Assembly (NCBI GenBank): GCA_041180605.1
Contig: JBEGRF010000051.1
Coordinates: forward strand, 36,421 to 100,420
Source of the DNA: Actinomycetota bacterium
GTDB lineage: Bacteria; Actinomycetota; Acidimicrobiia; Acidimicrobiales; Ilumatobacteraceae
DNA: 64,000 nt
Direction of reading: 5' to 3'
The notes beneath the pieces were generated by a model, which made no database searches, was not told where the DNA came from, and was given only the letters and a program-made list of their open reading frames with translations. Below are positions 6,112 through 52,416 of this stretch, one piece after another. Position numbers and translations under genes: made by a program. Within the stretch, counting starts at the first letter, position 1. Each line of letters begins with the position of its first letter.

Positions 6112-6357
6112 GTCCCCTTCTTCGTCATCCACAGGAACTCCCACAACGTGTGGAGAATCCCATCCGTGTAACTCTGTAACTCTGTGTGTCGTCGATACCC
6201 GCACGAGGCGGGGCAGGGAACGTAGCACGTTTTCCACAGGGGGCAAAACGACAAATCACATCGCGGGTGTTTACCCGAGCGTTGTGAGCACCCACCCACT
6301 GCCCTAGCCTGAAGACGTTGCTTCCAATCGCCTTGAAAGTGACGTCAGGAGAGAGGC
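6112..6357. promoter_or_regulatory. dnaA/rpmH divergent control region with DnaA-box-like sites
   Basis: TCATCCACA 6125-6133, TGTGGAGAA 6149-6157 (TTCTCCACA on the other strand), and TTTTCCACA 6230-6238. Each is within 1-2 mismatches of TTATCCACA/TTGTCCACA. Confidence 0.5.
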
Positions 6358-17756: not shown

Positions 17757-18421
17757 GCCTGCGGTCTTGACTCCCGCTCGAGCACGCAGAGTCGGTCTGG
17801 CACCGTCACGAAGCCGAGCTTGCGATACAGCGAAAGGGCGGCTTGGTTGGTCGGCTCGGTATTGACGAGCAACTCGACGGTCCCGCGCGAGTGGGCCCAC
17901 GCGAGACTCGCGTGCACGAGACGGCTGGCGATCCCTCGTCGGCGGGCGTCGCCGCCGACGGCGAGCCGCTGCAGGTACGCGGTCTGCGCAGAGCGGCCGA
18001 CAAGTGCGAACCCCGTCGTCGCGCCATCACCGCTGACGATGATCGCGTGGTCGTAGGTGGCGGTGCACGCCTTTGCGAATCCGTCGCGCGAGAAATTCCA
18101 CGGTGACGGGAATCCTTCGGCGTCCAGTTGCAAGAGTCCTTCAAGGATTGGCGCGTGGCGCCGCGACCGAAGTTTGCGCCACGACCATGTCGTCAGGTCT
18201 TCAAAGGAGCGTGACCCGAGAGGAACCGTGTTGCGTCGCAGCATCACCAACGACTGCACGACGGAGAAACCCTGTGCCTCGAACCAACGTGCGTCAGACA
18301 CACCCAACGCTGGGGTTCGCAGCACGTCGCCGTTGGCTCCTCGCACTTCGGTGCACGTCGCGAGAATTCGGCGCTCGTCATTTCGGCGTTGCGCACGCGG
18401 CCCGAACACGACAGCCGACAC
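17753..18421 (-). CDS. GNAT family N-acetyltransferase
   Basis: 222-aa ORF with an acetyl-CoA-binding-like block LQRLAVGGDARRRGIASRLVHASLAWA and ...NQAALSLYRKLGF. Confidence 0.8.
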   Translation of the reverse strand: MSAVVFGPRAQRRNDERRILATCTEVRGANGDVLRTPALGVSDARWFEAQGFSVVQSLVMLRRNTVPLGSRSFEDLTTWSWRKLRSRRHAPILEGLLQLDAEGFPSPWNFSRDGFAKACTATYDHAIIVSGDGATTGFALVGRSAQTAYLQRLAVGGDARRRGIASRLVHASLAWAHSRGTVELLVNTEPTNQAALSLYRKLGFVTVPDRLCVLERESRPQA

Positions 18422-22298: not shown

Positions 22299-23678
22299 GT
22301 GACGATCACCGATATCCGCCGCGGCGACGCCGAGGGCGGCAAGCCGCGCATCCCGCCGCACAACGTGGACGCCGAAGCGTCGTTGCTCGGCGCGATGATG
22401 TTGTCGGAAGAAGCGATCGCGACCGCACTCGAAATCGGCCTCAGCGACCAGGATTTCTACAAACCTGCGCACCGAAGCGTCTTCGATGCGATTCGCTCAC
22501 TCAGCATCGCCGGCGAACCAGTCGACCCAGTCACTGTCGGCGAAGAGTTGCGCAAAGCGGCGAAGTTGGAGGGCATCGGCGGACTCGACGCGCTCATGCG
22601 GCTGCAGAATGCGACCCCGGCCATCTCGAGCGCCGAGCGATACGCGAAGATCGTCCGTGATGCTGCCAAGTTGCGCCGCGTCATCACCGCTGCGGCAGCC
22701 ATCGCCGAGATCGCATACAGCGAGCCTCCCGACGTCGACCAAGCACTCGACGAAGCCGAGAGCAAGATCTACGACGTCTCCGCAGGAAAGTTGAACGAGG
22801 GAGCCCAGCAACTCAGCGAACTGCTGACCCAGTCGCTTGAGACCATCGAAGAACGCTGGAACAACCCGAACTCGATGACCGGCGTGCCGACGGGCTTCAA
22901 CAAACTCGACGAACTGTTGCTCGGCTTGCAGCCAGGCGCACTGCACGTGATCGGTGCACGACCCGGCATGGGCAAGAGCGCCCTTGCTCTCAACATGGCG
23001 GTCAACGTGGCGCGCAACACGATGCGGCCAGTCATCTTCTTCAGCCTCGAAATGAGCGCCTACGAACTGTCGCAACGCGTTCTCGCGAGCGAAGCGAGCG
23101 TGCCGTCGGAAGTGCTGCGCGGTGCGGCACCGAGCGAACGCCAGTGGACAGAGATCGGTCGCGCGGTCGGCCGACTCGACATCCCGCTTATCATCGACGA
23201 CTCGCCCTCGACTTCCGTCGGTTCGATGCGGGCGCGAGCGCGACGCGTGCGGCTCGCGCAAGGCGATCTCGCGCTCATCGTCATCGACTACCTGCAGTTG
23301 ATGGGCGGCGATGCCAAGGTGGAGAACCGCCAGCTTGAAGTGAGCGACATCAGCCGCAACCTGAAATTGATGGCCCGCGAATTCAACGTGCCGATCGTGG
23401 CGCTCAGCCAGTTGAGCCGCAATCTGGAGAACCGCGGCGACAAGCGACCGAACCTCTCCGACCTGCGAGAGTCAGGCGCCATCGAGCAGGACGCCGACGT
23501 CGTCATGTTCATCTATCGCGGCGAGGCAGCCGGCGACTCCACTGCGGCACGCGGCACCGCCGACTTGATCGTCGCCAAGCACCGCGCCGGTCGCACCGAC
23601 ACCGTGAAACTCGCGTGGATCGAACCGTTCACTCGCTTCGAGAACTTCTTCGAAGGCACGTCCTCACCGAGCATCTAG
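22299..23678 (+). CDS. dnaB: Replicative DNA helicase DnaB (no intein)
   Basis: 459 aa. PPHNVDAEASLLGAMML, Walker A GARPGMGKSALALN, and ...IVALSQLSRNLENRGDKRPNLSDLRESGAIEQDADVV. Confidence 0.96.
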   Translation: MTITDIRRGDAEGGKPRIPPHNVDAEASLLGAMMLSEEAIATALEIGLSDQDFYKPAHRSVFDAIRSLSIAGEPVDPVTVGEELRKAAKLEGIGGLDALMRLQNATPAISSAERYAKIVRDAAKLRRVITAAAAIAEIAYSEPPDVDQALDEAESKIYDVSAGKLNEGAQQLSELLTQSLETIEERWNNPNSMTGVPTGFNKLDELLLGLQPGALHVIGARPGMGKSALALNMAVNVARNTMRPVIFFSLEMSAYELSQRVLASEASVPSEVLRGAAPSERQWTEIGRAVGRLDIPLIIDDSPSTSVGSMRARARRVRLAQGDLALIVIDYLQLMGGDAKVENRQLEVSDISRNLKLMAREFNVPIVALSQLSRNLENRGDKRPNLSDLRESGAIEQDADVVMFIYRGEAAGDSTAARGTADLIVAKHRAGRTDTVKLAWIEPFTRFENFFEGTSSPSI

Positions 23679-23906: not shown

Positions 23907-25354
23907 CTCCGATCACCTTATTGAGCAGGTGTTCAAATTTCGCTGCATTTTGGTGTCCAACCGCCAAATCAATGTTGACTTGACCGCTCTCGTCTCCGAG
24001 CTGAATTCGGTGACATCCTTGTTCAGGAAGTTCAGGCAAGCAGACAAATCGCGAAATTGAGTTTTGCTTAATTGTCACAACACCTCCAACTGCTTAGCCG
24101 CTATGTTGATTCACGTGTCAAGTCTGCAGTTCAATGTCATTGATGTAGGTGCTCGTTATGGAATTCATCCCTCGCTGCGGCGTCTTATGGGAATGGTTCC
24201 AATCCACCTGTTTGAACCAGATCCAACAGAGTCGGAGAGACTCTCGGCACAGTATGCGTCGATTCGTGGAGTATCCGTTCATGCAGTTGCATTGGGTGTC
24301 GCAAGTAGCGCGAGACCGTTTGTACTTCGAGAACACCGAGGTCTTAGTGGATTTGCCGACATTTCACCCGACAACTCGAACTGGAAAATTCCGGTTCAGG
24401 GAGTGGGGGAGTTCGAGCATATACAAGTGGAAGTTCGGCCGCTTTCCGATTTCCTAATTGGTAAGCCTGCAATTATCAAACTTGATACCGAGGGTAGCGA
24501 GTTTGAAATACTCGTCTCCGCGGGAGAGCAATTGCGAAATGTGACTGCAATCCGGCTTGAATTCAATATGAGGGCGCTATGGAGCACGGGGACCAGCTTC
24601 GCCAAGCTGGATGCTTTTTTGGCCGAGCAAGGATTCGTGTTTACTAATTTTGATTCTCCGCCAAACGGCTCGATCTTCGGTCGACTTCCACTGCCCGGAA
24701 GCAAGGGACAGTTGATTGCCGGCGATGGTTTGTGGGTGCGCGAACAAAGGGAATCGACTTTAAGTGACCCAGAGCTTTTCTGTCGCTCGTTCTTCTTTTA
24801 TTTGAACGGCCTCGAGGGATTGGGACTTGAGGACGTATCAAAACTGTCAGAAGATGCGAGGGTGAGCCTTATCTGCTCTGAGCATTCTTCGCTTGAGGCT
24901 CTGCTGTACGCACTTGTGCTTCAACATCTTCTATCTGCGCGGCTTTACCCACACTTCGGGGCTTCGGCAGTTGAATCTGAGCACTTGAATCTCTTTGGCC
25001 GTCCGATTCCTGGGCGCGAAATCCTCTTTCAGCGTCTCCACCAAGCGGGACTAAATGTTGAGTAGTCGTAGCGCCAGAGGGCAGACCAAAGAAAAATCTA
25101 GGCTCATGACAAATCTAGGTCCTAGCCTTTGGTCGCAGTCTTGAACTTGTAAACTCAAGGTTAAGTACCTGATAGATCCTATCGCACTTGGTGAACACCT
25201 CCTGAATTGTCGTGCTTGTACGCACCGCGGAACTTCATTTGTGAACCAGATGGCAAGGCTCAGGCGTGTGCGAGATCTCGGCTCAGGGTCGCCTGCAGTC
25301 ATAGGCAAATTCGTGGGACCGCACACAATCCGAAGAATTACTGTTTTGGATCGG
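23907..25354. other. AT-richer islet (probable horizontally acquired remnant) abutting the 3' end of tRNA-Gly
   Basis: Base composition shifts abruptly (for example ttattgagcaggtgttcaaatttcgctgcattttggtg), judged by eye. It contains one convincing gene (FkbM-type methyltransferase) and about 290 bp of non-coding DNA with a short direct repeat AAATCTAGG x2 at about 25094-25120. No integrase or att repeat was seen. Confidence 0.6.
24103..25065 (+). CDS. FkbM family methyltransferase with ~110-aa C-terminal extension
   Basis: ORF 24064..25065; ATG 24103 preferred. Motifs VIDVGARYG, HLFEPDP, AVALG, and IIKLDTEGSEFEILVSAGEQL...IRLEF are typical of Methyltransf_21/FkbM. Confidence 0.8.
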   Translation: MLIHVSSLQFNVIDVGARYGIHPSLRRLMGMVPIHLFEPDPTESERLSAQYASIRGVSVHAVALGVASSARPFVLREHRGLSGFADISPDNSNWKIPVQGVGEFEHIQVEVRPLSDFLIGKPAIIKLDTEGSEFEILVSAGEQLRNVTAIRLEFNMRALWSTGTSFAKLDAFLAEQGFVFTNFDSPPNGSIFGRLPLPGSKGQLIAGDGLWVREQRESTLSDPELFCRSFFFYLNGLEGLGLEDVSKLSEDARVSLICSEHSSLEALLYALVLQHLLSARLYPHFGASAVESEHLNLFGRPIPGREILFQRLHQAGLNVE

Positions 25355-25425
25355 AGCGGGTGACGGGAATCGAACCCGCGTTCTCAACTTGGGAAGCTGA
25401 TGTTCTGCCATTGAACTACACCCGC
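25355..25425 (-). tRNA. tRNA-Gly (anticodon CCC)
   Basis: Reverse complement GCGGGTGTAGTTCAATGGCAGAACATCAGCTTCCCAAGTTGAGAACGCGGGTTCGATTCCCGTCACCCGCT. It folds as a cloverleaf with anticodon loop TTCCCAA and T-loop GGTTCGATTCC. CCA is not encoded. Confidence 0.9.
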
Positions 25426-25508
25426 CGGCGGCGCTGCACCAGCGTCATCTCGAAGCGTACCAACGTCGCTTCTCGGCGAATTCTGCGTCTTACTAAGGTT
25501 GGTGCGCC

Positions 25509-26072
25509 GTGATCCTCTCTGATCGCTCCATCCGCGAAGCAATGACGGCCAAGCGCATCATCATCGACCCGTTCGACGAAGCGTGCCTGCAACCGTCGTC
25601 GATCGACGTGAAAGTGTCCAATCTCTTCCGCGTGTTCCGCAACCACACGACTGCTCTCATCGACGTGAAGAAGGATCTCACCGACCTGACCGAATTGGTG
25701 GAGATGAAAGGCGATGAACCGTTCGTCTTGCATCCGGGCGAGTTCGTGCTCGGCTCCACGCTCGAGCGAGTGGCGATCGCGAACGACCTCGTGGCGCGCG
25801 TCGAGGGCAAGAGCTCGCTCGGCCGGCTCGGTCTGCTCATCCATTCGACCGCCGGATTCATCGATGCGGGGTTTGACGGCCACATCACGTTGGAGTTGTC
25901 GAACGTGGCGAACCTTCCGATCACGATCTACCCGTCGATGAAGATCGGCCAAGTGAGTTTCATGACTATGACGACGCCGGCCGACAAGCCGTACGGCTCA
26001 GGGGCTCGCGGCTCGAAGTACCAAGGCCAGCGCGGCCCGACGCCGAGCCGCTACTTCGAAAACTTCCGCTGA
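25509..26072 (+). CDS. dcd: dCTP deaminase
   Basis: 187 aa. [12 protein letters not shown]...[18 protein letters not shown]...[32 protein letters not shown]. Confidence 0.95.
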
Positions 26073-28333
26073 CCAAGCGGTGCTTGGAGCGCGGATGCTG
26101 AACGTTCGCCGTTCTCGATCGCCTCGAGCACGTGGATGGCAATGTCACCCACTTTTACTTGCGACTCGTCCTTGCCCGCGCCTTTGACTCCGTCGTCGAG
26201 CATGATGTAGCAGAACGGGCAGGCGGTCGCCACGCGCGTCGCGCCAGTTGCAATCGCCTCGCGAGCGCGCTCGTCGTTCACTTTTACCCCGACGTTCTCT
26301 TCCATCCACATTCGCGCGCCGCCTGCGCCGCAGCACATGCCCTTGGTGCCGTTGCGCGGCATCTCCACCACTTGGATGCCCTTGATCGAGCCGACCACCT
26401 TTCGCGGCGCCAAGTACACGTCATTGTGGCGGCCGAGATAGCACGAGTCGTGGTAGGTAATGCGATCGTCGAGTGACGCGTTGCTCATGTCGAGTCGTCC
26501 GGTGGCAATGAGGTCTTCGAGCAACTGCGTGTGGTGCACGACTTCGTAGTTGCCGCCGAGCTGGGGGTATTCGTTCTTCAAGGTGTTGAAGCAGTGCGGG
26601 CACTGCGTGATGATCTTACGCACGCCCATGCCGTTCAGCATCTCCACGTTCGGCGTGGCGAGCATCTGAAAGAGGTACTCGTTGCCGCTGCGTCGCGCAG
26701 AGTCGCCCGTGCACATCTCGCTCGGGCCGAGGATCGCCACGTCGATGCCGGCGCGCTTCAACAACTTGGCCATCGCCTGCGTGACCTTCTTGTTCTTGTC
26801 GTCGAACGAGCCTGCGCAACCCACCCAGTACAAGTACTCGTGGGTGAGCGGCGATCCGGGGTCGAGCACCGTCACATCAAGACCTTTCGCCCACGCCGCG
26901 CGGTCGCCTTGGTTCATGCCCCACGGGTTGCCTTGGTTCTCCATGGCGCGGTAGGCGTTGCCGAGCTCGGCGGGGAAGTTGCTCTCCATCAGCGAGAGAT
27001 ATCGGCGCATGTCGAGGATCTTGTCGAGGATCTCGATGTTCACCGGGCAGATTTCGTCGCAGGCCTTGCACGACGTGCACGACCAGACCTCCTCGGCGGT
27101 GATGCGCTCGAACACCGAGTTCGCACTGACAGTGATCTCAGAGTCGACGCCGATGGGTGGGGACACCTTGCCGCCGGGCGCGTGCGCGGCAGTGGCGGCC
27201 ATCACTTCGCCGCTCTTCAGCACGATCTCGCGCGGGTCGAGCGGTTTGCCCGTGGCGTGCGCCGGGCACACGCTCGTGCACCGACCGCACATCGTGCAGG
27301 CATCGAGGTCAAGCAGCTGCTTCCACGTGAAACTTTCGACGGCGTTCACGCCAAACGACTCGAGCGAGGTCTCGGCGAGGTTGGGCATCGCGCGCATCGC
27401 GCCCTTCGGTCGCTCGCGGTCGCGCAAGTACATGTTGAGTGGTGAGGTGAAGATGTGGCGCAGCATCGTGATGGGCAGCAACGCCAGGAACGCGACGAAT
27501 GTGACGACATGGAACACCCACCACCCCTGGTGCCACGTCTCCAACGTGTCGAGCGACAGGCCGTTCACGGTCTGGGCGAGCGGCCAACCGACCACGCTCC
27601 AACGCTCGTAGTCGACGTTCTTGCCGGCGGCTTGCTCGGCGGCGATTCGGAACATCTCGGTGGCGAACCCGCCCACGCCGATGGAGAGCAAGACGCCGAG
27701 GATCCATGCGTGCTCGGGCTTCGACTTGATGCGGATGCGATACGGCTTCTGCACGTAACGGCGAAGGATCGCCCACACGACGCCGGCGGTGAAGACGACA
27801 CCAGCGATGTCGCCGACGAGGGCGTACCCGCGGTACACGTCGCCGTGCAAGAACTTGAGGGCCGGCGGCATCTGGTGGTCGACTTCGAGCACTGTCGTGA
27901 CGCCGAGCAGCACCAAGAAGCCGAAGTAGATCATCGAGTGCATCAAGCCGGCGGCGGAGTCGCGCAGCAGCGTGCGCATGTACACGCCGGCGCGGAAATC
28001 GGCGAGACGTCTCTTCAAGTTCTTTGTCGTCGTGCGGCGGTCGTCGGGCGCGCCGCGCTCCCAGTTGCGGATGCGGTCGGCAAAGCGCAGCGAGCCCCAG
28101 ATGAGCATCATCGGAATGACCGTGTAGAAGACGAGTTTGAGCGCCCCAGGAATGCCGCCGAACACTTGGCGGTGGACGGGCGAGTCGCTTTCCCACCCGG
28201 TGAGCGTCGGGACGACTCCCGATATCAGCGTGAAGATGCCGATGCCGCAGCCGAGGATGATCGACAGTTGGTAAGGCTTCAGTCGCTTGCGTACGGCAAC
28301 GGGCGCGGCGTCACCATGCATGGCGACCGCCAC
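26051..28333 (-). CDS. Membrane-anchored Fe-S / CCG-domain oxidoreductase (heterodisulfide-reductase-like, Rv0338c-type)
   Basis: 760 aa. N-terminal polytopic domain, two ferredoxin motifs [12 protein letters not shown] and [12 protein letters not shown], and Cys-rich CCG-type blocks [24 protein letters not shown]. Start is GTG 28333 or ATG 28321. Confidence 0.87.
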
Positions 28334-41844: not shown

Positions 41845-41920
41845 TGGTGGTCGGGACCGGCGTCGATCCGGTGACCCCGCGCTTTTCAGGCGCGTGCTCT
41901 GCCAACTGAGCTACCCGACC
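41845..41920 (-). tRNA. tRNA-Phe (anticodon GAA), CCA encoded
   Basis: Reverse complement GGTCGGGTAGCTCAGTTGGCAGAGCACGCGCCTGAAAAGCGCGGGGTCACCGGATCGACGCCGGTCCCGACCACCA. Confidence 0.93.
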
Positions 41921-41945
41921 ATGATTCGGTGTTTCCACCGTCTCG

Positions 41946-42020
41946 CGGTCCCGACGGGATTTGAACCCGCGACCTCCGGCTTGACAGGCCGGCGTGAACT
42001 CCAAACTTCACCACGGGACC
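41946..42020 (-). tRNA. tRNA-Asp (anticodon GTC)
   Basis: Reverse complement GGTCCCGTGGTGAAGTTTGGAGTTCACGCCGGCCTGTCAAGCCGGAGGTCGCGGGTTCAAATCCCGTCGGGACCG. Confidence 0.93.
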
Positions 42021-42046
42021 AGATTCGTTGTCGAAACTGATCTTCG

Positions 42047-42119
42047 CACCCCCAACGGGATTCGAACCCGTGCCGCCACCTTGAAAGGGTGGTGTCCTAG
42101 GCCTCTAGACGATGGGGGC
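42047..42119 (-). tRNA. tRNA-Glu (anticodon TTC)
   Basis: Reverse complement GCCCCCATCGTCTAGAGGCCTAGGACACCACCCTTTCAAGGTGGCGGCACGGGTTCGAATCCCGTTGGGGGTG. It has a G1-U72 wobble at the top of the acceptor stem. Confidence 0.9.
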
Positions 42120-43041: not shown

Positions 43042-43974
43042 GTGGTGCTCGGTCGACCTCTCGTCCCATCACGATTGACGAGCTCGTTCGCCCACGTGGG
43101 ATCGCGTCCCGCACGCACGCAGATCGGCGCGTACGTCATGCTGACCAAGCCGCGGATCATTGAACTGCTGCTCATTACCACCGTGCCGACGATGGTGCTC
43201 GCCCAGGGCGGGTGGCCGGACACGTGGCTCGTCGTGCTCACGGTGCTCGGGGGCGCGCTCGCCGCCGGCGGTGCGAACGCCATAAATATGTACATCGACC
43301 GCGACATCGACCACTTGATGGAGCGCACGAAGAATCGTCCTCTCGTCACGGGTCGCGTGGCGCCACGCAACGCACTCATCTTCGCTGTGACCCTCGAAGT
43401 GCTGTCATTCATCGTGCTTGCTGCCTCGTCGAACGTGCTCGCCGGGCTGCTTGCGATTGGTGCGACTCTTTTCTATGTCTTTGTCTATTCGCTCTGGTTG
43501 AAACGCACCTCGCGGCAGAACATCGTCATCGGCGGTGCAGCGGGCGCCGCCCCTGTTCTTGTCGGTTGGGCCGCGGTCACCAACGATGTCTCGTGGTCGG
43601 CGGTCGTCCTCTTTCTCGTCATCTTCTTTTGGACTCCGCCGCATTTCTGGGCACTCGCGATACGCCACGTCGATGAGTACCGCGCGGCATCGGTGCCGAT
43701 GCTGCCCGTCGTCGAAACTTTGGCTCGCACGGTGCGCACCATGGGGCTGTATTCCGTCGCGGTTGCGCTCGCGTCGTGGGCGCTGATTCCGATGAACGAC
43801 ATGGGTGTCATTTACACCGTGGCATCGTTCGTGCTCGGCATCGCGTTCGTAGCGCTGACCTTCGGTCTCGGTCGAGCACCCAGTCCCTCGGCCGCGATGC
43901 GCGTGTTCTCGTTCTCCATTACCTACGTCACGCTGCTTTTTCTCGCCGTGATGATCGATGTGCTCGTGCGCTAG
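43042..43974 (+). CDS. ctaB: Protoheme IX farnesyltransferase (heme O synthase)
   Basis: [14 protein letters not shown]..., [23 protein letters not shown], polytopic. The exact start is uncertain (GTG 43042, 43045 or 43096). Confidence 0.92.
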
Positions 43975-44051
43975 TTCTGCGCACTGCCCGACACGCTGAG
44001 CCTGCAACAGACCTCGGCCAAAACGGTCGATTTGAGTAGCCTTGCGGGACG

Positions 44052-45551
44052 GTGACGACGGCAGTGGATTCGCGCGCGACAAGCAGTGTCGGCTCATCGG
44101 CCGTCCCCGCACCGCTCTCGGCGATCGGCCGTTGGCTGACTACCGCAGACCACGTGCGAGTGGGTGCCTCCCTCGTCGTAAGCGCATTCGTCTGGGCGTT
44201 GGTCGCCGGTGCACTCGGTGCCGTCCTCGGCGTAGAGCGGCTCGATGCCGGTTCGGCGCTCGTCGATGCTGATGCGCTGGCACAGCTGTTCTCCCTGCAC
44301 CGCTTTGCGCTCGTGTTCGGGGTGCTCGCTCCGTTGATGCTCGGCGTGTCCGTCTTGACGGTGCCCGCGCAGTTGCACGCTGCCAACCTTTCTGTCCCGC
44401 GATTGGCGGCGTTCGGCTGGTGGGCGTGGCTCGCAGGAAGCATCATCGCACTCGTCTCGTACATCGGCAACGGCGGTCCGGGCGGGGGAGACGGGCGCTA
44501 CGTCGAGACGTATCTGCTCGGTCTCGCCATCGTCATTCTCGGTCTCGTCGCGGTCGCCGTGTCGCTCGCCACCACCGTGCTGACTCGTCGCAACGGCAAC
44601 CGACTCGCCGACATACCGGTCGGCGCATTCGCTGCACTCGTCTCGGCGGTCGGAGTGACCCTCACGTTCCCCGTGGCCCTCGGCACCGTCGCTTACTTGT
44701 GGGTTGATTTCGTCAATGCCCGTGTCGCGTTCGGCGGCGGCGACATGTTCGATTCGTGGCTCGGTTGGTTGATGCGCGAGCCGCAAACGCTGCTCTTGGC
44801 TGCTCCGGCGCTGGGCATCCTGGCGGATGCAGCAGCTCGCACCGCCAAGTCTCGCCAGCCGCTACGCGGAGTAGTGCTCGTCGGTGTAGGAATCTCGGCT
44901 GTCGTCGTCTTCAGTTCAGTGACCCAGCAGGCTCACGTGTTCGCGACGGGGAAGACACCGTTCGAAACCCTGCAATCGTTCGTGCCCTTCGCCCTCTTCA
45001 ACGTGCTTCCGCTGCTCGCACCATGTTTCGTGGTGCTGCTCTCGCTCCTCGCGCTCAAGTCGGGCACGAGCGCTCTTTCTGGCGCATTCGTCGCATCTTT
45101 CCTGGGAGTCGGAATGGTATTCACCGGACTGGTTGGTTCCGCGGCCATGCACCTCGAAGCCCTCGACCTCATCGGCACGGTGTTCGGCGAAGCCACCCTC
45201 GTCTATGTCGTCTACGGCACGGTGCTCGCCGCCGTCGGAGCGATCACCTTGCATGCGGGGGCCGTCACTGGCCGCGCACTTCCGGACACGCCGGTTCTCC
45301 TGCTCGCGCTATCGGGATTCGCCGCCACCGTGCTCGCGTCGCTCCCGCACTTCGTCGCCGGCTTCCTCGATCAGCCGGCAGCAGTAGCAGCCGGTTATGA
45401 CGACTCTGGTTTCGTCGGCATCGCCAACGTGCTCGTCGGCGTAGGCCACGCGCTCATGGCTCTCGTCGTGCTCGCTTTCGCCGGTCTCTTCTTCAAGTCC
45501 CGGCGCGGCGAAGCCGCCACCGACCGATATGCGACGGAGGTGTCTGCATGA
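44052..45551 (+). CDS. Heme-copper oxidase subunit I-like polytopic protein lacking most canonical His ligands
   Basis: 499 aa. Collinear by eye with the window's own ctaD (RWLTTADHVRVG vs SWLFTVDHKKLG; LFSLHRFALVFGVLAP vs MFTMHATTMVFLFVMP). The GHPEVY, HH and HFHY blocks are replaced. Confidence 0.8.
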   Translation: MTTAVDSRATSSVGSSAVPAPLSAIGRWLTTADHVRVGASLVVSAFVWALVAGALGAVLGVERLDAGSALVDADALAQLFSLHRFALVFGVLAPLMLGVSVLTVPAQLHAANLSVPRLAAFGWWAWLAGSIIALVSYIGNGGPGGGDGRYVETYLLGLAIVILGLVAVAVSLATTVLTRRNGNRLADIPVGAFAALVSAVGVTLTFPVALGTVAYLWVDFVNARVAFGGGDMFDSWLGWLMREPQTLLLAAPALGILADAAARTAKSRQPLRGVVLVGVGISAVVVFSSVTQQAHVFATGKTPFETLQSFVPFALFNVLPLLAPCFVVLLSLLALKSGTSALSGAFVASFLGVGMVFTGLVGSAAMHLEALDLIGTVFGEATLVYVVYGTVLAAVGAITLHAGAVTGRALPDTPVLLLALSGFAATVLASLPHFVAGFLDQPAAVAAGYDDSGFVGIANVLVGVGHALMALVVLAFAGLFFKSRRGEAATDRYATEVSA

Positions 45552-46153
45552 GCGTTCCAGCACTCACGGCCGGGCCTGCTCGTCGCACGAGCACGGTCTT
45601 TGTCGCCACCGGATTCGTCTCCGCTGCCGCAGCGGCACTGATGGGCGGGATGCTCGCGATCTGGCTCGACTTTCGTGCAAAGGCTCCGACGCGCATCGCC
45701 GGGGACGGTGCGACAATCATCAAAGACTGGCTGAAGAAAGACATCACGATCCCTGAGGTCGCCGCGAACACGATGATGTTCACCTTCGTCATCGCGTGCG
45801 TGATGGCCCAGTGGGCGGTCTACTCGGGGCGGCGAAACGACAAGTCGCACACCACGCTCGCTCTTGCGGTAACGCTCTTCACGGGCCTCGCGCTGCTCAA
45901 CGTGCAGGCTGCCCTGTGGATGCAGATGGACATCGTGCTGCGCGACGACGCGTACCAGACGATGTTCTATACGGTCACCGGAACGATGTTTGCGCTCATC
46001 GCGAGTGCAGTGGTCTACTCGCTCGTCGCGATGTTCTGGGTGCTCGCCGGTCGAACGAGCGACCACGACGTTCTTGCCGCCCATGCCCTCTATTGGTACG
46101 CGACCTACGGCATCTTTGCCGCCCTCTGGTTCGTCGTCTACGTGCAGAAGTAA
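45548..46153 (+). CDS. Heme-copper oxidase subunit III-like 5-TM protein
   Basis: 201 aa. ATGA overlap with the preceding gene. Aligns by eye with ctaE over its full length (FYTVTGT vs FYTLTGF; ALYWYATYGIFAALWFVVYV vs GLYWHFVDIVWIIIFTLVYL). Confidence 0.75.
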   Translation: MSVPALTAGPARRTSTVFVATGFVSAAAAALMGGMLAIWLDFRAKAPTRIAGDGATIIKDWLKKDITIPEVAANTMMFTFVIACVMAQWAVYSGRRNDKSHTTLALAVTLFTGLALLNVQAALWMQMDIVLRDDAYQTMFYTVTGTMFALIASAVVYSLVAMFWVLAGRTSDHDVLAAHALYWYATYGIFAALWFVVYVQK

Positions 46154-46157
46154 CACC

Positions 46158-47291
46158 ATGTTCAAGGTCGGATCCAAACTCTTCCTCGGTCTCACCGGGT
46201 TCGCAGCGCTCGTCCTCCTCGCGTACATCATCTTCGTCGAACGACTCGCGGTCGGCGGCGTGGCGCTCAGCCTCGTCTTTGCTGCGCTGGTCGGCCTCAC
46301 CTCCATCGTCTTGGCCGTCAACGAGGGTGACGACGAAGTGCAGCCTCGTGATGCGACGCTCACCAGGGCGTCGATGTGGCCGCTGGTCACCGTCGTCGGT
46401 CTCGTGCTCTTCGTGCTCGGGCTCGTCGTTGCGCAGGTGTATTTCGTCTTCGGCATCGTCGTAGTGCTCGCGGCACTCGCGGAATGGATGGTGCAATCGT
46501 GGAGCGAATCGGCGTCAGACGACGTGCTCCACAACGAGTCTGCACGCCGACGCTTGCTCCACCCGATCGAATTCCCCGTGCTCGCGGCACTCGGCCTCGG
46601 CGTCATTCTCTTTTCGTTCTCGCGCATCATGCTCGCCATCTCGAAGAGCTCGGGTGCCGCCATGTTCATCGTGGTGGCCTCGTTGGTGCTATTGGCAGGT
46701 TCGCTCTTTGCACTTCGACCGTCGTTGAAGCCGGCGCTCGTGAGCGGAATCTGCGTCGTCGGCGCCATCGGCATCGTCGCAGGCGGAATCGCTGGCGCCG
46801 GAGCCGGCATGCGCACGGAACTCGCCGAGGCAAAGGAAGAAGGCCACTTTTCTCACCGCGAATGCGGGACGGAAAAGTCGAAGTACTTCGACAAGAAGGC
46901 GATGAAGACGTTGTCCTTGCGCAGCAACGTCGCCGCAGTGATCGAACTTCGCGACGGCAAACTCACGGCCGCAGTGGCCGGGTTCGAAGATCCACAAGAA
47001 ACGATCAGCGTGCCGCGCTCCAACCCCGTCACGTTCATCTTCCGCAACCATGACGACACCGAACGGCGCATGGTTGCCACCCTCGGCACTGCGATGGCCG
47101 CGAGCGCGACGCAAGAGGCCCCGAGCGAGAAGCACGGAGACAGCAACGAGACGTGCACCCAACTCATCCCGAACGGCGCGGAGCAAGGGCTCACCATCAC
47201 GTACAACAAACCCTCGATCGCACAAGAGACTCCCTTCACCCTGAGCGTTCCGGGGCTCGACGGGCAGTACATCGAGGTACTGGTGCCGTGA
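46158..47291 (+). CDS. Polytopic (about 7 TM) membrane protein with ~170-aa C-terminal soluble, beta-rich (cupredoxin-like?) domain
   Basis: ATG 46158 lies 4 nt after the previous stop (MFKVGSKLFLGLTGFAALVLLAYIIFV). C-terminal ...ISVPRSNPVTFIFRNHDDTERRMVATLG...GLTITYNKPS...FTLSVPGLDGQYIEVLVP. The ORF extension from 45990 overlaps the previous gene. Confidence 0.7.
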   Translation: MFKVGSKLFLGLTGFAALVLLAYIIFVERLAVGGVALSLVFAALVGLTSIVLAVNEGDDEVQPRDATLTRASMWPLVTVVGLVLFVLGLVVAQVYFVFGIVVVLAALAEWMVQSWSESASDDVLHNESARRRLLHPIEFPVLAALGLGVILFSFSRIMLAISKSSGAAMFIVVASLVLLAGSLFALRPSLKPALVSGICVVGAIGIVAGGIAGAGAGMRTELAEAKEEGHFSHRECGTEKSKYFDKKAMKTLSLRSNVAAVIELRDGKLTAAVAGFEDPQETISVPRSNPVTFIFRNHDDTERRMVATLGTAMAASATQEAPSEKHGDSNETCTQLIPNGAEQGLTITYNKPSIAQETPFTLSVPGLDGQYIEVLVP

Positions 47292-47344
47292 ATCACGAAC
47301 GAACGAATGCACCTGCCGACCGCCACGGCTTTAGCGTGAGGCGC

Positions 47345-48541
47345 ATGGGTGTGCGGTCGCTCGTGTCCCGAGTTGCGGCCGCACTCGGCCTGCTCGTCGT
47401 CCTTGCCTCGTGCGCCACGGATGCGCCGCAAGACACGTGGCAGCCGAAAGGTCCGAACGCCAAACTGATCGACGATCTCCAACAGCCGATCTTCGCGGTC
47501 GCGGGCATCATCGGCATCATCGTCTTCGCAGTCATCGTGTACGTCATCTGGCGTTACAAGGACCGCGGCCAACCGATTCCCGAGCAGACGCACGGCAAGC
47601 CGGCGCTGGAGATCACGCTTACCGTCATCCCCGCACTCATCCTCGCCGTCGTCGGTGTGTTCACCGTGCGCGCCATCTTCGACCTCGCCCGCACCGACGA
47701 CAGCGAACTCGTCATCAACGTGACCGGGCAGCAGTGGTGGTGGGAATACGACTACCCCGTGCAGAACGAATGGGGAATCACTCAGCCGATCATCACCTCG
47801 GGCCAGTTGGTGATGCCAGCCGGCACGAAGGTGCTCCTGCGCGAGACGAGTCGCGATGTCATCCACTCGTATTGGATCCCCGCGCTGAACGGCAAGCGTG
47901 ACGCGGTCCCTGGACGTATCCATACACTGCGACTCGAGGCCGACGAACCCGGCATCTATGCCGGACAATGCACCGAATTCTGCGGCCTCTCGCATGCAAA
48001 CATGCGCATGGAGGCAGTCGCCCTCTCCAAGGAAGACTTCGCCGCGTGGGTAGCCAACCAGCAGGCTGCGTACACGTCACCTGCAGAAGGCACGCTGGCC
48101 AAAGAAGGCGAATCGGTGTTCCTCAACCAGTGCGTACGCTGCCACCAAGTCAACGGCTTGAAGCGCGCCGACGGCACGCTTGCGATCGCCGCACCCGACG
48201 AGAACGTGTGGTCGGGTGCCGCCCCGAACTTGAGCAAATTGATGACTCGCAACACGTTCGCGGGGGCGATGTTCGACCTCCTGCGAGATGCATGCCGCGA
48301 CGACGTGTGGAAGTCCGCAAGCGCTGACTTCGGGGCGAAATACCTCGCTGGCGTCGACGAAACGTGCCTCAACGTCACCGACCTGCGCGCATGGTTGCGC
48401 AATGCGCCGGCCGAGAAGCCGATGTACTCGAATCCGGCACTTCTCACCGAGACGAACGGCAAGTACCGCGGCATGCCGAATCTCGGCCTGAGCGAATCCG
48501 ACATCGACAAACTCGTCGCATACCTGCTCACGCTGAAATAG
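47345..48541 (+). CDS. ctaC: Cytochrome c oxidase subunit II with fused C-terminal cytochrome c domain (caa3 type), lipoprotein signal
   Basis: Lipobox LVVLASC. CuA site CTEFCGLSHANM (47969-48004). Heme c motif CVRCH (48131-48145). An alternative start at GTG 47288 overlaps the upstream stop (GTGA). Confidence 0.92.
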   Translation: MGVRSLVSRVAAALGLLVVLASCATDAPQDTWQPKGPNAKLIDDLQQPIFAVAGIIGIIVFAVIVYVIWRYKDRGQPIPEQTHGKPALEITLTVIPALILAVVGVFTVRAIFDLARTDDSELVINVTGQQWWWEYDYPVQNEWGITQPIITSGQLVMPAGTKVLLRETSRDVIHSYWIPALNGKRDAVPGRIHTLRLEADEPGIYAGQCTEFCGLSHANMRMEAVALSKEDFAAWVANQQAAYTSPAEGTLAKEGESVFLNQCVRCHQVNGLKRADGTLAIAAPDENVWSGAAPNLSKLMTRNTFAGAMFDLLRDACRDDVWKSASADFGAKYLAGVDETCLNVTDLRAWLRNAPAEKPMYSNPALLTETNGKYRGMPNLGLSESDIDKLVAYLLTLK

Positions 48542-48550
48542 GAGGAAGAG

Positions 48551-50581
48551 ATGGCCATCATTGAACGCCCCGCCCCGACGACGGTTCCGGCGCTCGTACC
48601 AGCGGCCCCCGCCATCACGCCCACCCGCACCTTCGGCGCGCTGCGACGACCCGTCACGAGTACCGGTTGGAAGTCGTGGCTGTTCACCGTCGACCACAAG
48701 AAACTCGGGCTCATGTACGGCGCAATGGCGCTCTTTTTCTTTCTCGTCGGCGGCATCGAGGCGGTGCTCATCCGCCTGCAGCTAGCCGCCCCCGACGGCA
48801 AGGTGCTGAACGCCGACCTCTACAACCAGATGTTCACTATGCACGCCACGACGATGGTGTTCTTGTTCGTGATGCCGATGGCGGCAGGATTCGCCAACTA
48901 TTTCGTACCGTTGCAGATCGGTGCTCGAGACGTCGCGTTCCCGCGCATCAACGCGTTCGGTTTCTGGTGCGTACTGGGCGGCGGCATCGTCGTCAACCTC
49001 GCGTGGTTCCTCGGCGGAGCCGCCGACGGCGGATGGTTCATGTACGCGCCGAATTCTGGCCCGGTGTTCTCACCGAGCCACGGCGTCGACTTCTGGGCGC
49101 TCGGATTGCAGATTGCCGGCATCGCCTCACTGACTGGCGCCATCAACTTGATCGTCACCGTGCTCAACATGCGTGCACCGGGCATGACACTCATGAAGAT
49201 GCCGGTCTTCACGTGGATGATCACGGTGGTGCAGTTCCTCCTTCTGTTCGCCGTGCCGGTGATCACCGTCGCCCTCTTCTTGCTCACCTTCCAACGAATG
49301 TTCGGCGCACAATTCTTCGACGTCGCGGCCGGAGCCGACCCGCTCCTGTGGCAGCACCTCTTCTGGATCTTCGGCCACCCAGAGGTGTACATCCTGGTTC
49401 TCCCGTCATTCGGCATCATCTCCGAAGTGCTGCCGGTGTTCAGCCGCAAGCCGCTCTTTGGGTATCCCTTCGTCGTCTTCTCCGGTGCCGCCATCGGCTT
49501 CGTCGGTTGGGGAGTGTGGGCCCACCACATGTTCGCCTCCGGTCTTGGGCCCGTGTCGGTCGCAGTGTTCAGCGTCGCCACCATGGCGATTGCCGTCCCG
49601 ACGGGCGTCAAGATCATCAATTGGACGCTCACCATGTGGGGCGGCAAGTTGGTGTTCTCCACCCCGATGAAATTCGCCATCGGTCTCGTCGTGTTGTTCA
49701 CCATCGGCGGCCTCTCCGGCGTCACCCACTCCGTCGCACCGAGCGACACCCAACAGACCGACACCTATTACATTGTCGCCCACTTCCACTACGTGCTGTT
49801 CGGCGGCGCGATCTTCGGCATCTTCTCCGGCTTCTACTACTGGTGGCCCAAGATGTTCGGCAAGATGCTCAACGAGCGCCTCGGCTCATGGAACTTCTGG
49901 CTCATGGTCATCGGCATGAACCTCACCTTCGGCCCGATGCACATCCTCGGACTGCAGGGCCAACCGCGCCGCATGTACGTGTGGACCGAAGCCCGCGCCG
50001 GCGAAGGCTTCTTCAACCTGGCGTTCTGGAATCTCGTCGCGTCGCTCGGCTCGATCGTCCTCGCAGTCGGAGTGCTGTTCTTCCTCATCAACATCGTGGT
50101 GACGGCCCGCAACAAGACGCGCGCCCCGCTTGACCCGTGGAATGCGCGAAGTCTCGAGTGGATGACCGCGAACCCGCCCAAAGAGCACAACTTCGACTCG
50201 ATTCCGCACGTGCATCACTTGGACGAGTTCTTCCACCGCAAGTACGAAGAAGACCCGACCACCCACACCATGCGCGAGGTCGCGTCGGCCGAGCAAGTAC
50301 TCGCCGAGCTCGAGCGCAACGCCGACCATCACATCCACATGCCGTCGCCGTCTTACTGGCCGATCGTGCTCGCATCCGGCCTCCCGATCGTCGCGCTCGG
50401 GGCGATCTATTCGATTCCAGTCGCCATCGTGGGTGCGGTCGTCATCTTGTACGCGATGTACGGATGGGCACTCGAGCCGTCGGTGGCCCCGGAGAGTGAC
50501 TTCGATCCGGCGTCAGGCAACGGAACTTCCGCAAACGGCGCGTCGGGCAGCGGGCATGCCCTCGGAGCAAGTCATGGCTGA
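48551..50581 (+). CDS. ctaD: Cytochrome c oxidase subunit I with ~110-aa C-terminal extension (two extra predicted TM helices)
   Basis: 676 aa after GGAGGAAGAG. WLFTVDHKKLGLMY, WQHLFWIFGHPEVYILVLP, WAHHMFASG, VAHFHYVLFGG. Tail ...HIHMPSPSYWPIVLASGLPIVALGAIYSIPVAIVGAVVILYAMYGW. Confidence 0.96.
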   Translation: MAIIERPAPTTVPALVPAAPAITPTRTFGALRRPVTSTGWKSWLFTVDHKKLGLMYGAMALFFFLVGGIEAVLIRLQLAAPDGKVLNADLYNQMFTMHATTMVFLFVMPMAAGFANYFVPLQIGARDVAFPRINAFGFWCVLGGGIVVNLAWFLGGAADGGWFMYAPNSGPVFSPSHGVDFWALGLQIAGIASLTGAINLIVTVLNMRAPGMTLMKMPVFTWMITVVQFLLLFAVPVITVALFLLTFQRMFGAQFFDVAAGADPLLWQHLFWIFGHPEVYILVLPSFGIISEVLPVFSRKPLFGYPFVVFSGAAIGFVGWGVWAHHMFASGLGPVSVAVFSVATMAIAVPTGVKIINWTLTMWGGKLVFSTPMKFAIGLVVLFTIGGLSGVTHSVAPSDTQQTDTYYIVAHFHYVLFGGAIFGIFSGFYYWWPKMFGKMLNERLGSWNFWLMVIGMNLTFGPMHILGLQGQPRRMYVWTEARAGEGFFNLAFWNLVASLGSIVLAVGVLFFLINIVVTARNKTRAPLDPWNARSLEWMTANPPKEHNFDSIPHVHHLDEFFHRKYEEDPTTHTMREVASAEQVLAELERNADHHIHMPSPSYWPIVLASGLPIVALGAIYSIPVAIVGAVVILYAMYGWALEPSVAPESDFDPASGNGTSANGASGSGHALGASHG

Positions 50582-51170
50582 GACTGCAGTGGCCCACGAC
50601 ACCCACGCGACGAGCACCGGGCTCTCCAACGTGAAGCTCGGCATGTGGCTCTTCCTCGGCTCAGAGTGCCTGCTATTCGGCGGACTGATCTCCACCTACA
50701 TGCTCTATCGCGGTCGAGTCGCCAATGGCCCGACGCCCGAGCAGGTGTACGACATCCCATTCACGTCAGTCAGCAGCTTCGTGCTGCTCATGAGCTCGCT
50801 CACGATGGTGCTCGCGGTCACTGCAGCCCACAAGAAAGACGATCGCAACACGAACCTGTGGCTCACCGTTACCGCTTTGCTCGGCGCCACGTTTGTCGGC
50901 GGCCAGGTGTACGAGTTCACCGCCTTCTACAACGAAGGCCTTGGTTTCACCACCAGCCTCTTTGGCTCGAGCTTCTACACCCTCACCGGCTTCCACGGCG
51001 TCCACGTCACCGTCGGCATCATCATGCTGCTCGCACTCGTGGCGATCAACAAGCGCAGCCGCGTGCCGGGCAGCAAATCGGAGACTGTCGAGATGATCGG
51101 CCTCTACTGGCACTTCGTCGACATCGTCTGGATCATCATCTTCACTCTCGTGTACCTCATTCCGGTCTGA
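50574..51170 (+). CDS. ctaE: Cytochrome c oxidase subunit III (short, 5-TM form)
   Basis: ATG 50574 overlaps the ctaD end. FYTLTGFHGVHVTVGIIML, GLYWHFVDIVWIIIF. Confidence 0.92.
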   Translation: MAETAVAHDTHATSTGLSNVKLGMWLFLGSECLLFGGLISTYMLYRGRVANGPTPEQVYDIPFTSVSSFVLLMSSLTMVLAVTAAHKKDDRNTNLWLTVTALLGATFVGGQVYEFTAFYNEGLGFTTSLFGSSFYTLTGFHGVHVTVGIIMLLALVAINKRSRVPGSKSETVEMIGLYWHFVDIVWIIIFTLVYLIPV

Positions 51171-51172
51171 TC

Positions 51173-51475
51173 ATGACGACATCGACGCCGACCCACGCCG
51201 AGCACGGCATGTCCACTCGCGGCTACGTCAATATCGCGGTCATCTTGGCGGCCATCACTGCACTCGAGGTCTCCACGTACTACGTGGACTTCGGCCCGCT
51301 CTTCTTGCCGGCATTGCTCATCATGATGGTGGTCAAGTTCTTCATGGTCGTCAGTTACTTCATGCATCTCAAGTTCGACAACAAGATCTTCAGTTGGCTG
51401 TTCTACGCGGGCTTGTTCCTCGCAGTCAGCGTGTACGTTGCGGCTCTCGCGACATTCCATTTCTTCCTGCGCTGA
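51173..51475 (+). CDS. ctaF: Cytochrome c oxidase subunit IV (prokaryotic COX4 type)
   Basis: ATG 51173 lies 2 nt after the ctaE stop. 100 aa, 3 TM. ...YVNIAVILAAITALEVSTYYV...KFFMVVSYFMHLKFD... Confidence 0.85.
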   Translation: MTTSTPTHAEHGMSTRGYVNIAVILAAITALEVSTYYVDFGPLFLPALLIMMVVKFFMVVSYFMHLKFDNKIFSWLFYAGLFLAVSVYVAALATFHFFLR

Positions 51476-51483
51476 GCACGCAC

Positions 51484-52416
51484 ATGCACGCGCCGGTCGC
51501 ACTGCTCGCAGAGTCGGCTGATCTTCTCGCCAGCCCGTGGCGTTTCCAGGCGCACCCCGAGGTGTGGCTGCTCGTCGCGTTCGTGGTTGCTTCGTGGTGG
51601 TATGCGCTCACATTCATCGGCCCGCACACGCCGGAGGTGCGTGCCGGCGGGCCACTCGTGACGGCGCGCCAAAAGAGGCTCTTTGTTCTCGCGGTGATCG
51701 TGCTGTGGTTGGCGTCTGATTGGCCGATTCACGACATCAGCGAGGAATACCTCTATGCCGTGCACATGTTCCAGCACATGGCGCTGTCGTACTTCTTGCC
51801 GCCGCTCGTGCTGCTCTCGATGCCGACCTGGCTGTTTCGGGCGGTCATCGGTTCGCAACGTGTCGGCCGTGCCATCCGCTGGTTCGCCAAGCCGGTCGTT
51901 GCAGGACTGGTCTTCAACGTCATGGTGATGGTCACGCACATCCCCGCACTCGTCAACCGCAGTGTGTCGAACGCCCCGCTCCACTATTCGCTGCACGTCG
52001 GACTGGTCGTCTCTGCGCTGTTGATGTGGACGCCGGTGGCCGCGCCCGACCCTGCGATGCGCATCGGATATGGCGGGCGGATGATCTATCTCTTCCTCAT
52101 GTCGGTGGTACCAACGGTTCCGGCCGCATGGCTCACCTTTGCGGAGGGTGCCGTCTACAAGCACTACGACATCGCGGTCCGTGTTTGGGGTCTCTCCGTG
52201 ACGACCGACCAACAGATTGCCGGCGCGATCATGAAGGTCGGTGGCTCGATCTTCTTGTGGTCGATTGTCGTCTTCTTGTGGTTCAGGCGCTTCATGGCCG
52301 GATACGGCGAAGGCCAGAGCTATGTGCGCAACCCCGAGCCCTCGCTCACCTACGAAGAAGTCACGCGGGAATTCGAGCGCGTTCCGGCGCATCCAGAGCC
52401 TCGCCGCGACGGCTGA
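51484..52416 (+). CDS. ctaG: Cytochrome c oxidase assembly factor CtaG (caa3_CtaG family, polytopic)
   Basis: ATG 51484. ...EYLYAVHMFQHMALSYFLPPLVLLSMP..., HIPALVN, DQQIAGAIMKVGGSIF. Confidence 0.85.
   Translation: MHAPVALLAESADLLASPWRFQAHPEVWLLVAFVVASWWYALTFIGPHTPEVRAGGPLVTARQKRLFVLAVIVLWLASDWPIHDISEEYLYAVHMFQHMALSYFLPPLVLLSMPTWLFRAVIGSQRVGRAIRWFAKPVVAGLVFNVMVMVTHIPALVNRSVSNAPLHYSLHVGLVVSALLMWTPVAAPDPAMRIGYGGRMIYLFLMSVVPTVPAAWLTFAEGAVYKHYDIAVRVWGLSVTTDQQIAGAIMKVGGSIFLWSIVVFLWFRRFMAGYGEGQSYVRNPEPSLTYEEVTREFERVPAHPEPRRDG

Follow-up and report, generated by a model that had tools for sequence, protein, structure and literature searches.

A caa3-type cytochrome c oxidase operon in a 64,000-nucleotide stretch of an Ilumatobacteraceae genome (Actinomycetota bacterium, GenBank assembly GCA_041180605.1, contig JBEGRF010000051.1, positions 36,421 to 100,420; hereafter the window) carries three extra genes between ctaB and ctaC, for which we use the working names X1, X3 and X2. 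As judged from their sequences, these genes encode a paralogous, cofactor-stripped copy of an A-family heme-copper oxidase that is incapable of O2 reduction and of proton pumping. Few membrane enzymes have been studied as thoroughly as heme-copper oxidases, and surveys of the superfamily take the metal ligands as their entry criterion, so that relatives without these ligands fall outside them. Here a whole paralogous set (subunits I and III, a subunit-IV-like body and a cupredoxin) has lost its catalytic residues, and yet purifying selection on it is strong, and at least 80 species keep it in strict operon linkage with an active caa3 oxidase. Below, window-type trios are called type-0, and distant loci with retained heme or copper ligands are called type-H.

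X1 retains the fold of oxidase subunit I. The protein scores 99.1 bits against Pfam COX1 (E 3.5e-28; cutoff 34.8) and matches the neighbouring CtaD by BLASTP at 2e-23, with 27% identity over transmembrane (TM) helices 1-8, which confirms the resemblance to subunit I claimed in an earlier note on this DNA. An AlphaFold2 (AF2) model with a mean predicted local distance difference test score (pLDDT) of 82 and a predicted template modelling score (pTM) of 0.87 has the 12-TM fold, and Foldseek matched it to A-family subunit I structures, with mycobacterial CtaD on top (TM-score 0.82, E 2e-16 to 9gy6_F). Sequence matches and predicted model together indicate that X1 is a true A-family subunit I fold.

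The chemistry of subunit I has been lost from this fold. In an alignment of 78 X1 orthologues with 25 neighbouring CtaD sequences, the heme a3 His, the TM10 His of heme a and CuB H333 occur in none of the 78 X1 sequences, and CuB H284 occurs in two. The earlier description of X1 as ligand-less therefore stands for four of the six His, which are gone in 76 to 78 of the 78 sequences, but two histidines persist. The TM2 His of heme a is present in the window X1 and kept by 21 orthologues (lost from 57), and a His no more than two residues from the second CuB His (the H334 region) is found in the window X1 and in 60 of the 78, although its exact register depends on the alignment. Residues of the proton pathways and the cross-linked Tyr are likewise replaced: E286, D132 and K362 are each found in 0/78 sequences and Y288 in 5/78. 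The window X1 has N at D132, V at N121, A at N139, Q at E286, V at K362, P at T359 and L at Y288; Thr and Val replace its TM10 His pair, Glu replaces H284, Ala or Gln replaces H333, and the Arg pair that binds the heme propionates is also replaced. X1 thus has the fold of a catalytic heme-copper oxidase subunit I without the six-His set or the proton-pathway residues and Tyr, whereas all ligand and channel residues are kept in 25/25 of the neighbouring CtaD sequences, the window CtaD having all six His ligands and the channel residues. The positions that X1 still has in common with CtaD are mostly Pro and Gly, which are determinants of the fold. The X1 family also has conserved features of its own, namely an E62-R63 pair, an NGGPGGG loop in place of the W172 loop, Q/E-P-Q in TM6, TQQ in TM7, FEE in TM10 and a His in TM12.

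X3 is related to subunit III, as had been proposed earlier. A profile built from 17 X3 orthologues aligned with the CtaE profile at 96.8% hhalign probability (E 3.1e-10, 156 columns), matched COX3 chains in the PDB at E values down to 6.6e-11 (Paracoccus COX3), and gave a full-length alignment to CtaE of Corynebacterium glutamicum. The window X3 taken alone falls under the Pfam COX3 cutoff (18 versus 23.8 bits), while the orthologues of three type-H loci (L083, L085 and L086) are recorded as PF00510, and homology to COX3 (PF00510) holds across the C-terminal helices.

X2 has three parts: an N-terminal module of four TM helices, three further TM helices and a C-terminal cupredoxin domain. The N-terminal four TM helices resemble actinobacterial subunit IV (CtaF) in sequence: the window fragment matches Pfam Cyt_c_ox_IV (PF12270) at E 7e-4 over profile positions 2-124 of 132, with 20.1 bits (cutoff 26.9), the family matches 9/17 X2 orthologues, and the distant orthologue P0409 scores 31.1 bits, over the curated cutoff. 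The best PDB sequence match of X2 is 7q21_F, CtaF of the C. glutamicum supercomplex (E 0.038). The loop between TM4 and TM5 holds the best-conserved motif of the family, EW.VQ.WSE.AS.D...N...R.R...P.E.P, which is common to type-0 and type-H forms. Counts of Lys and Arg under the positive-inside rule predict that this loop is cytoplasmic, with the N-terminus inside the cell and the C-terminal domain outside.

The C-terminal domain of X2, of about 130 residues, was modelled by AF2 at pLDDT 80-90 and adopts the cupredoxin beta-sandwich of type-1 blue-copper proteins. Its Foldseek matches include auracyanin (6kol, E 1.1e-4) and a Cupredoxin_1 structure (4hcf, 2e-4, probability 1.0), with EfeO among the top matches and CyoA (1fft_B) also listed; Pfam searches with the isolated domain and with the TM5-7 segment gave no meaningful matches. 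The His, Cys, His, Met ligand set of blue-copper proteins is absent. In the window X2, Arg304 occupies the column of the first copper-binding His and the C-x2-H-x3-M loop has been lost, and across type-0 sequences the four ligand positions hold Arg, Ser/Val, Gly/Leu and Gln/Tyr. Cys333 is invariant and Cys236 nearly so; these two residues may form an extracytoplasmic disulfide, which would fit the outward-facing position that the topology count gives the cupredoxin.

An origin of this domain from the CuA subunit was considered and rejected. X2 has neither a Pfam COX2 match nor the CuA motif H...C-x-E-x-C-x3-H-x2-M, and hhalign comparison with CtaC gave probabilities of 0.14% for type-0 and 11% for type-H, neither of which is significant. 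Reading X2 as a degenerate subunit II, with the invariant 'CTQL' as a remnant of 'C-T-E-F-C', is ruled out by these comparisons and by a type-1 loop that lies elsewhere in the distant orthologues. On profile comparison, the X2 cupredoxin is a degenerate type-1 blue-copper domain, with a CuA origin excluded. The earlier note had described X2 as a protein of about seven TM helices with a cupredoxin-like tail resembling a catalytic subunit, and had stated that its CuA ligands were lost. The AF2 model and the Foldseek matches uphold the fold, and copper ligands are indeed missing, but the resemblance to subunit II did not survive comparison with CtaC, and the ancestry of the tail is type-1 blue copper rather than CuA.

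The history of the ligand loss can be read from the type-H relatives. Searched exhaustively by HMMER, the X2 profile returned 832 clusters, the distant members of which have the same 7-TM body. In these proteins the C-terminal domains pass the Cupredoxin_1 cutoff of Pfam (PF13473), two of them also pass Copper-bind (PF00127, plastocyanin/azurin), and one type-H X2 matches SoxE under the curated cutoff. The type-1 copper site is complete in these distant forms, as in '...VPHNLHI...YICDVHPVEMQG', and the copper ligands are present in the type-H X2 proteins of L082, L083, L085, P0409, P0463 and P0471. Type-H and window-type X2 profiles align by hhalign at 100% probability (E 4e-61), with the invariant Arg304 of the window type opposite the first copper His. 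Type-H X1 (L082, L083, L085 and L086) is intermediate as well: both low-spin heme His are kept, the heme a3 His is replaced by Gln, and all three CuB His are gone. The gene order at L083 is DUF2017, ClpS, (ctaA), ctaB, COX1-like, COX3-like, X2, ctaC, ctaD, ctaE, ctaF, ctaG, ABC-2, ABC, serS, so that this locus has the same flanks as the window, with DUF2017 and ClpS upstream and ABC-2 and serS downstream. The less degenerate trio occupies L083:3173-6581 and is found likewise in the metagenome contigs L082, L085, L086 and L087; in L086 and L087 the copper Cys of X2 has been lost. On a 3.4-kb contig (P0409, JGI 3300041965), an X2-like protein with a subunit-IV-like body and an intact blue-copper domain has no X1 or X3 directly upstream, the upstream genes being on the opposite strand. 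Proteins built like X2 may also occur apart from the trio.

A neighbour-joining tree separates all X1 sequences, as a single group, from CtaD, and within that group the 78 window-type sequences together have type-H as their sister. This sister position, together with the ligands that type-H retains, indicates a two-step history, in which the binuclear centre reads as having been lost first, in the common ancestor, and the heme a site and the blue copper later, in the window's lineage. By this comparison the window trio is the fully stripped end of a graded series. Its ancestor would have been redox-active, already without the O2-reducing centre but still with a bis-His heme and a type-1 copper, a form that persists in related lineages, and the type-H relatives probably act as an electron-transfer adaptor that feeds caa3. 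A quinol site of the bo3/aa3-600 type in X1, which would make type-H a quinol:cupredoxin oxidoreductase, was also considered and is not supported. Key residues are replaced: in a HMMER alignment, R70, D74 and H94 of Bacillus subtilis QoxB correspond to Val, Leu and Ala in the X1 profile, and L083 has Gly and Val.

The full heme a and type-1 copper ligand sets of type-H relatives raise the question of whether the window-type trio is itself still redox-active, holding heme or copper through non-canonical ligands as an electron-transfer adaptor that feeds caa3. The TM2 His and near-CuB His of the window X1, the TM12 His conserved in type-0 X1, and the two X2 cysteines could be taken as such ligands. 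The retained His are not conserved across the type-0 clade, however, the copper positions of type-0 X2 hold residues that are not ligands, and the cysteines would be better explained as a disulfide, so that we regard a redox role for the window form as quite improbable. With no binuclear centre, low-spin heme pair, copper site, D channel or K channel, the window-type trio could neither reduce O2 nor pump protons, and the ligand and channel table of 78 orthologues agrees with the earlier view that it cannot form a conventional oxidase.

The trio is nevertheless maintained by selection. Scanning one genome per species turned up 281 genomes that carry an X1 relative, and locus comparisons were made with the best 80 of the 281, all of them Acidimicrobiia MAGs (metagenome-assembled genomes), mostly from Ilumatobacteraceae. 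By tblastn the order ctaB-X1-X3-X2-ctaC-D-E-F-G is collinear in all 80 loci as far as the contigs reach, and the synteny holds across lineages that differ by about 60% in X1 protein. Ratios of nonsynonymous to synonymous substitution rates (dN/dS) between the window and five relatives are 0.12-0.15 for X1, 0.03-0.08 for X3 and 0.07-0.16 for X2, compared with 0.05 for ctaD and 0.07-0.12 for ctaB. The X genes are in the range of ctaB and ctaF, and their values exceed that of ctaD two- to threefold. By mean Kimura distance, X1 (0.88), X3 (0.61) and X2 (0.92) lie above ctaD (0.23), and at least 95% of sequences agree at about 50 positions of X1. A decaying, functionless relic of a duplicated oxidase operon would be in keeping with the faster evolution of the X proteins, whose divergence outpaces that of CtaC/D/E about three- to fourfold. 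Yet the proteins stay intact, and frames that are open in essentially all 80 species, low dN/dS, the conserved X1 positions and the kept synteny make a relic barely credible. The earlier note had named pseudogenisation in relatives as an outcome that would count against its view; by these measures (dN/dS 0.03-0.16, intact frames) it is excluded for practical purposes. Since selection has persisted after the loss of the cofactors, the retained function would be independent of them.

We therefore turn to what a cofactor-independent trio could do. X1, X3 and X2 would be expressed on one transcript with ctaB and ctaCDEFG, with translational coupling predicted at X1/X3, at X3/X2 and probably at X2/ctaC. 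The three proteins most likely assemble together like subunits I, III and IV, because they have the folds of mutually binding subunits, appear translationally coupled and co-occur constantly. The resulting pseudo-oxidase would dock to, stabilise or organise the neighbouring active caa3, a partnership suggested by operon linkage that is unbroken in both type-H and window-type lineages. We tentatively favour a structural accessory or partner module of caa3, with confidence somewhat short of even. A broader proposition, which we hold with more doubt, is that the trio belongs to an unrecognised branch of the heme-copper superfamily without oxygen chemistry, in which the older form was a heme and blue-copper adaptor, without a binuclear centre, that fed or regulated caa3, and the window form is a cofactor-free, obligatory structural partner.

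Several observations weigh against a structural partnership with caa3. First, the caa3 oxidase already has subunit IV equivalents (ctaF and the C-terminal hairpin of CtaD), which leaves no obvious gap for the trio to fill. Second, rate covariation among eight genes in 34 loci just mirrors gene adjacency and favours no partner: partial correlations are 0.67 for ctaB-X1, 0.42 for X1-X3, 0.33 for X3-X2, 0.41 for X2-ctaC, 0.42 for ctaC-ctaD and 0.56 for ctaD-ctaE. Third, the place in the operon beside ctaB suits a role in assembly equally well. Finally, the conserved polar motifs of TM6, TM7, TM10 and TM12 form a cluster that lines the former active-site region and could mean a new ligand or ion site instead of a passive scaffold.

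The third of these points leads to a biogenesis scaffold, an apo-oxidase mimic that would transiently hold heme O or heme A (from CtaB/CtaA) or nascent CtaC/D/E, in the manner of a Surf1-like chaperone analogue. The trio is flanked by the gene for heme O synthase on one side and the structural genes on the other, ctaG ends the operon, ctaA is directly upstream in L083, type-H X1 retains exactly the low-spin heme a ligand pair, and the ctaB-X1 correlation is the highest of those above, even if it tracks gene adjacency. A scaffold is nonetheless unlikely: window-type X1 is without the bis-His heme site (TM10 His lost in 78/78, TM2 His in 57/78), none of the proteins is similar to any known assembly factor, and three stoichiometric subunits, together about 1,080 residues, would make an expensive chaperone. 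The polar cluster, for its part, would suit an autonomous, neofunctionalised membrane module whose Gln/Glu-lined pockets bind or conduct an ion or a small molecule, the link to caa3 being regulatory or historical. Conserved polar residues in the former cofactor helices (QPQ in TM6, TQQ in TM7, E380 in TM10, D219, E62-R63 and the TM12 His) and the strongly conserved, predicted cytoplasmic loop of X2 are consistent with such a module. Set against them are the destruction of both the canonical D and K channels, the absence of any transporter-family similarity among the matches found, and a strict caa3 operon linkage over deep divergence that argues for a shared function, and we judge an autonomous module to be rather improbable.

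Comparison with known systems places the proposed partner of caa3 among pseudoenzymes. Its resemblance to A-family aa3/caa3 oxidases extends from the 12-TM X1, the subunit III X3 and the IV-like X2 N-terminus to the gene order, I-III-IV mirroring ctaD-ctaE-ctaF, but the trio is without heme a3/CuB ligands, the cross-linked Tyr, E286, the D/K channels, the propionate Arg pair and a CuA subunit. Auracyanin, sulfocyanin and halocyanin are membrane-anchored blue-copper electron carriers that serve terminal oxidases. X2 recalls auracyanin, its best structural match, as well as halocyanin and the sulfocyanin SoxE of the Sulfolobus SoxM complex, in the H...C-x2-H-x3-M site of type-H and in the position of its gene beside a terminal oxidase. 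In contrast to these carriers, the window X2 is without all four ligands, has a 7-TM body instead of a lipid or single-helix anchor, and is paired with ligand-poor I and III paralogues. The Core 1/2 proteins of the mitochondrial bc1 complex are inactive relatives of the mitochondrial processing peptidase, and offer a parallel for a paralogue of an active enzyme that is kept under selection as a non-catalytic respiratory part. The likeness is an analogy only, since here a whole multi-subunit membrane enzyme has been hollowed out, and its place in the active complex is putative. We know of no other cofactor-free pseudoenzyme complex in the heme-copper oxidase superfamily.

Copper-free cupredoxins occur elsewhere in the superfamily. 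In a 2024 superfamily survey, gNOR subunit II is described as a cupredoxin without copper in a heme-copper oxidase complex (Murali et al., 2024; PMC11214002). Like Escherichia coli CyoA, a quinol oxidase subunit II, it is a membrane-anchored, copper-free cupredoxin beside a subunit-I-type protein; unlike X1, their subunit I stays catalytic, and X2 further differs in the type-1 origin of its domain and in having seven TM helices rather than two. Assembly factors (Surf1, Sco, PCuAC, Cox11, Caa3_CtaG, CtaA/CtaB and CtaM) resemble the trio in that it lies inside the cta operon, between ctaB and ctaC, but X1, X3 and X2 gave no match to Surf1, Sco, PCuAC, Cox11, CtaA or Caa3_CtaG in Pfam and NCBIfam at E <= 1. 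This result accords with the earlier statement that the trio is no described assembly factor set, as does its absence, under the terms searched, from a review of cytochrome c oxidase assembly proteins (Hederstedt, 2022; PMC9145763). Under the terms searched, a ligand-less oxidase family goes unmentioned in that review and in the 2024 survey, and a full-text literature search returned no description of a ligand-less oxidase paralogue, although most subscription journals lie outside its coverage and this absence is not proof. Sequence comparison thus points to a pseudoenzyme derivative of the heme-copper oxidase complex of a kind that we have not found described, with a partly stripped intermediate alongside it.

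That intermediate, with its low-spin heme and blue-copper ligands, offers a natural dissection with which to ask what the subunit I scaffold and subunits III and IV contribute beyond catalysis. Acidimicrobiia are a globally abundant class in freshwater and soil, with Ilumatobacteraceae abundant in freshwater, and annotation of the trio matters for such genomes. The public record lists the three gene products of the window, RL072_1583 to RL072_1585 of an Actinomycetota MAG, as hypothetical proteins. X1 orthologues elsewhere carry the PGAP label 'cbb3-type cytochrome c oxidase subunit I' or the IMG labels 'heme/copper-type cytochrome/quinol oxidase subunit 1' and 'cytochrome o ubiquinol oxidase subunit 1'. 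Such labels mislead in the case of the metal-ligand-poor X1, and metabolic reconstructions based on them count an oxidase that cannot exist.

The trio is part of a set of nine same-strand genes, ctaB-X1-X3-X2-ctaC-ctaD-ctaE-ctaF-ctaG, packed with almost no gaps over positions 43042-52416 of the window (Table 1).

Table 1. Coordinates of the cta genes and of the modules of X2 in the window.
Feature	Position	Strand	Evidence
ctaB, heme O synthase	43042..43974	+	NCBIfam NF003349 389 bits (cutoff 246); Pfam UbiA 4.8e-65
X1, subunit I paralogue, 499 aa	44052..45551	+	Pfam COX1, AF2, Foldseek, ligand table
X3, subunit III paralogue, 201 aa, short 5-TM type	45548..46153	+	hhalign, PDB profile matches
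X2, 377 aa	46158..47291	+	AF2, Foldseek, profile comparison
X2 N-terminal module, aa 1-111, four TM helices, subunit-IV-like	46158..46490	+	Pfam Cyt_c_ox_IV
X2 conserved TM4-TM5 loop	46482..46577	+	Invariant alignment columns
X2 TM helices 5-7, including FSRIML motif	46575..46805	+	AF2 helices 140-161, 165-186, 192-216; conservation
X2 C-terminal cupredoxin-fold domain	46890..47291	+	AF2, Foldseek, orthologue Pfam matches, hhalign
ctaC, subunit II, CuA and fused cytochrome c domain (caa3 type)	47288..48541	+	Pfam COX2, COX2_TM, Cytochrom_C; TIGR02866 199.8 bits
ctaD, catalytic subunit I, 676 aa	48551..50581	+	Pfam COX1 519.7 bits; TIGR02891 686.7 bits
ctaE, subunit III	50574..51170	+	Pfam COX3 72.9 bits
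ctaF, small prokaryotic subunit IV (COX4_pro)	51173..51475	+	Pfam COX4_pro 1.4e-10
ctaG, Caa3_CtaG assembly factor	51484..52416	+	Pfam Caa3_CtaG 135 bits

The open reading frame (ORF) coordinates reproduce the layout given in the earlier note, including strand, tight packing, the ATGA overlap of the X1 stop with the X3 start, and the 4-nt spacing between X3 and X2. CtaC, which carries the lipobox LASC, has two candidate starts, ATG 47345 and GTG 47288, the latter overlapping the X2 stop; in the 94%-identical contig L081 the gene caller chose the equivalent of the overlapping GTG. The ctaB start is possibly GTG 43096, by analogy with a 292-aa call in L081, and the starts of ctaE and ctaG were confirmed. 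A consensus scan of the intergenic gaps found no promoter-like or terminator-like site, a scan with little power in a 63% GC actinobacterium. The C-terminus of CtaD (window 50294-50480) is extended by a hairpin of two helices, which matches Cyt_c_ox_IV (26.9 bits, residues 582-643), and the caa3 oxidase here mixes actinobacterial (the CtaD hairpin) and Bacillus-type (ctaF, COX4_pro) features in its small subunits. A DUF2017-ClpS pair precedes ctaB, an arrangement also seen in L081, L083 and L084, and tandem tRNA genes for Phe-GAA, Asp-GTC and Glu-TTC lie just upstream of the pair (window 41845-42119, minus strand).

Elsewhere in the window, recF and dnaA (both on the minus strand), a Jag/R3H gene and dnaB at 2205-6246 and 22299-23678 indicate that the replication origin adjoins the window; the cta cluster lies about 40 kb from dnaA, among housekeeping genes. 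A 716-aa candidate ORF at 15750-17900 (minus strand) has no Pfam match at E <= 1e-5 and is either a real gene or a high-GC artefact. The interval 24001-26000 has a GC content of 0.53, compared with about 0.63 elsewhere, and contains an FkbM-family methyltransferase ORF (24064-25065); the stretch is possibly a small island of acquired DNA. A 760-aa ORF at 26051-28333 (minus strand) joins a NarI-like membrane part (Nitrate_red_gam) to 4Fe-4S dicluster motifs and two CCG cysteine-rich domains, and by its domain content is an HdrD/DsrK-like membrane-bound Fe-S oxidoreductase, possibly another quinone-linked respiratory component.

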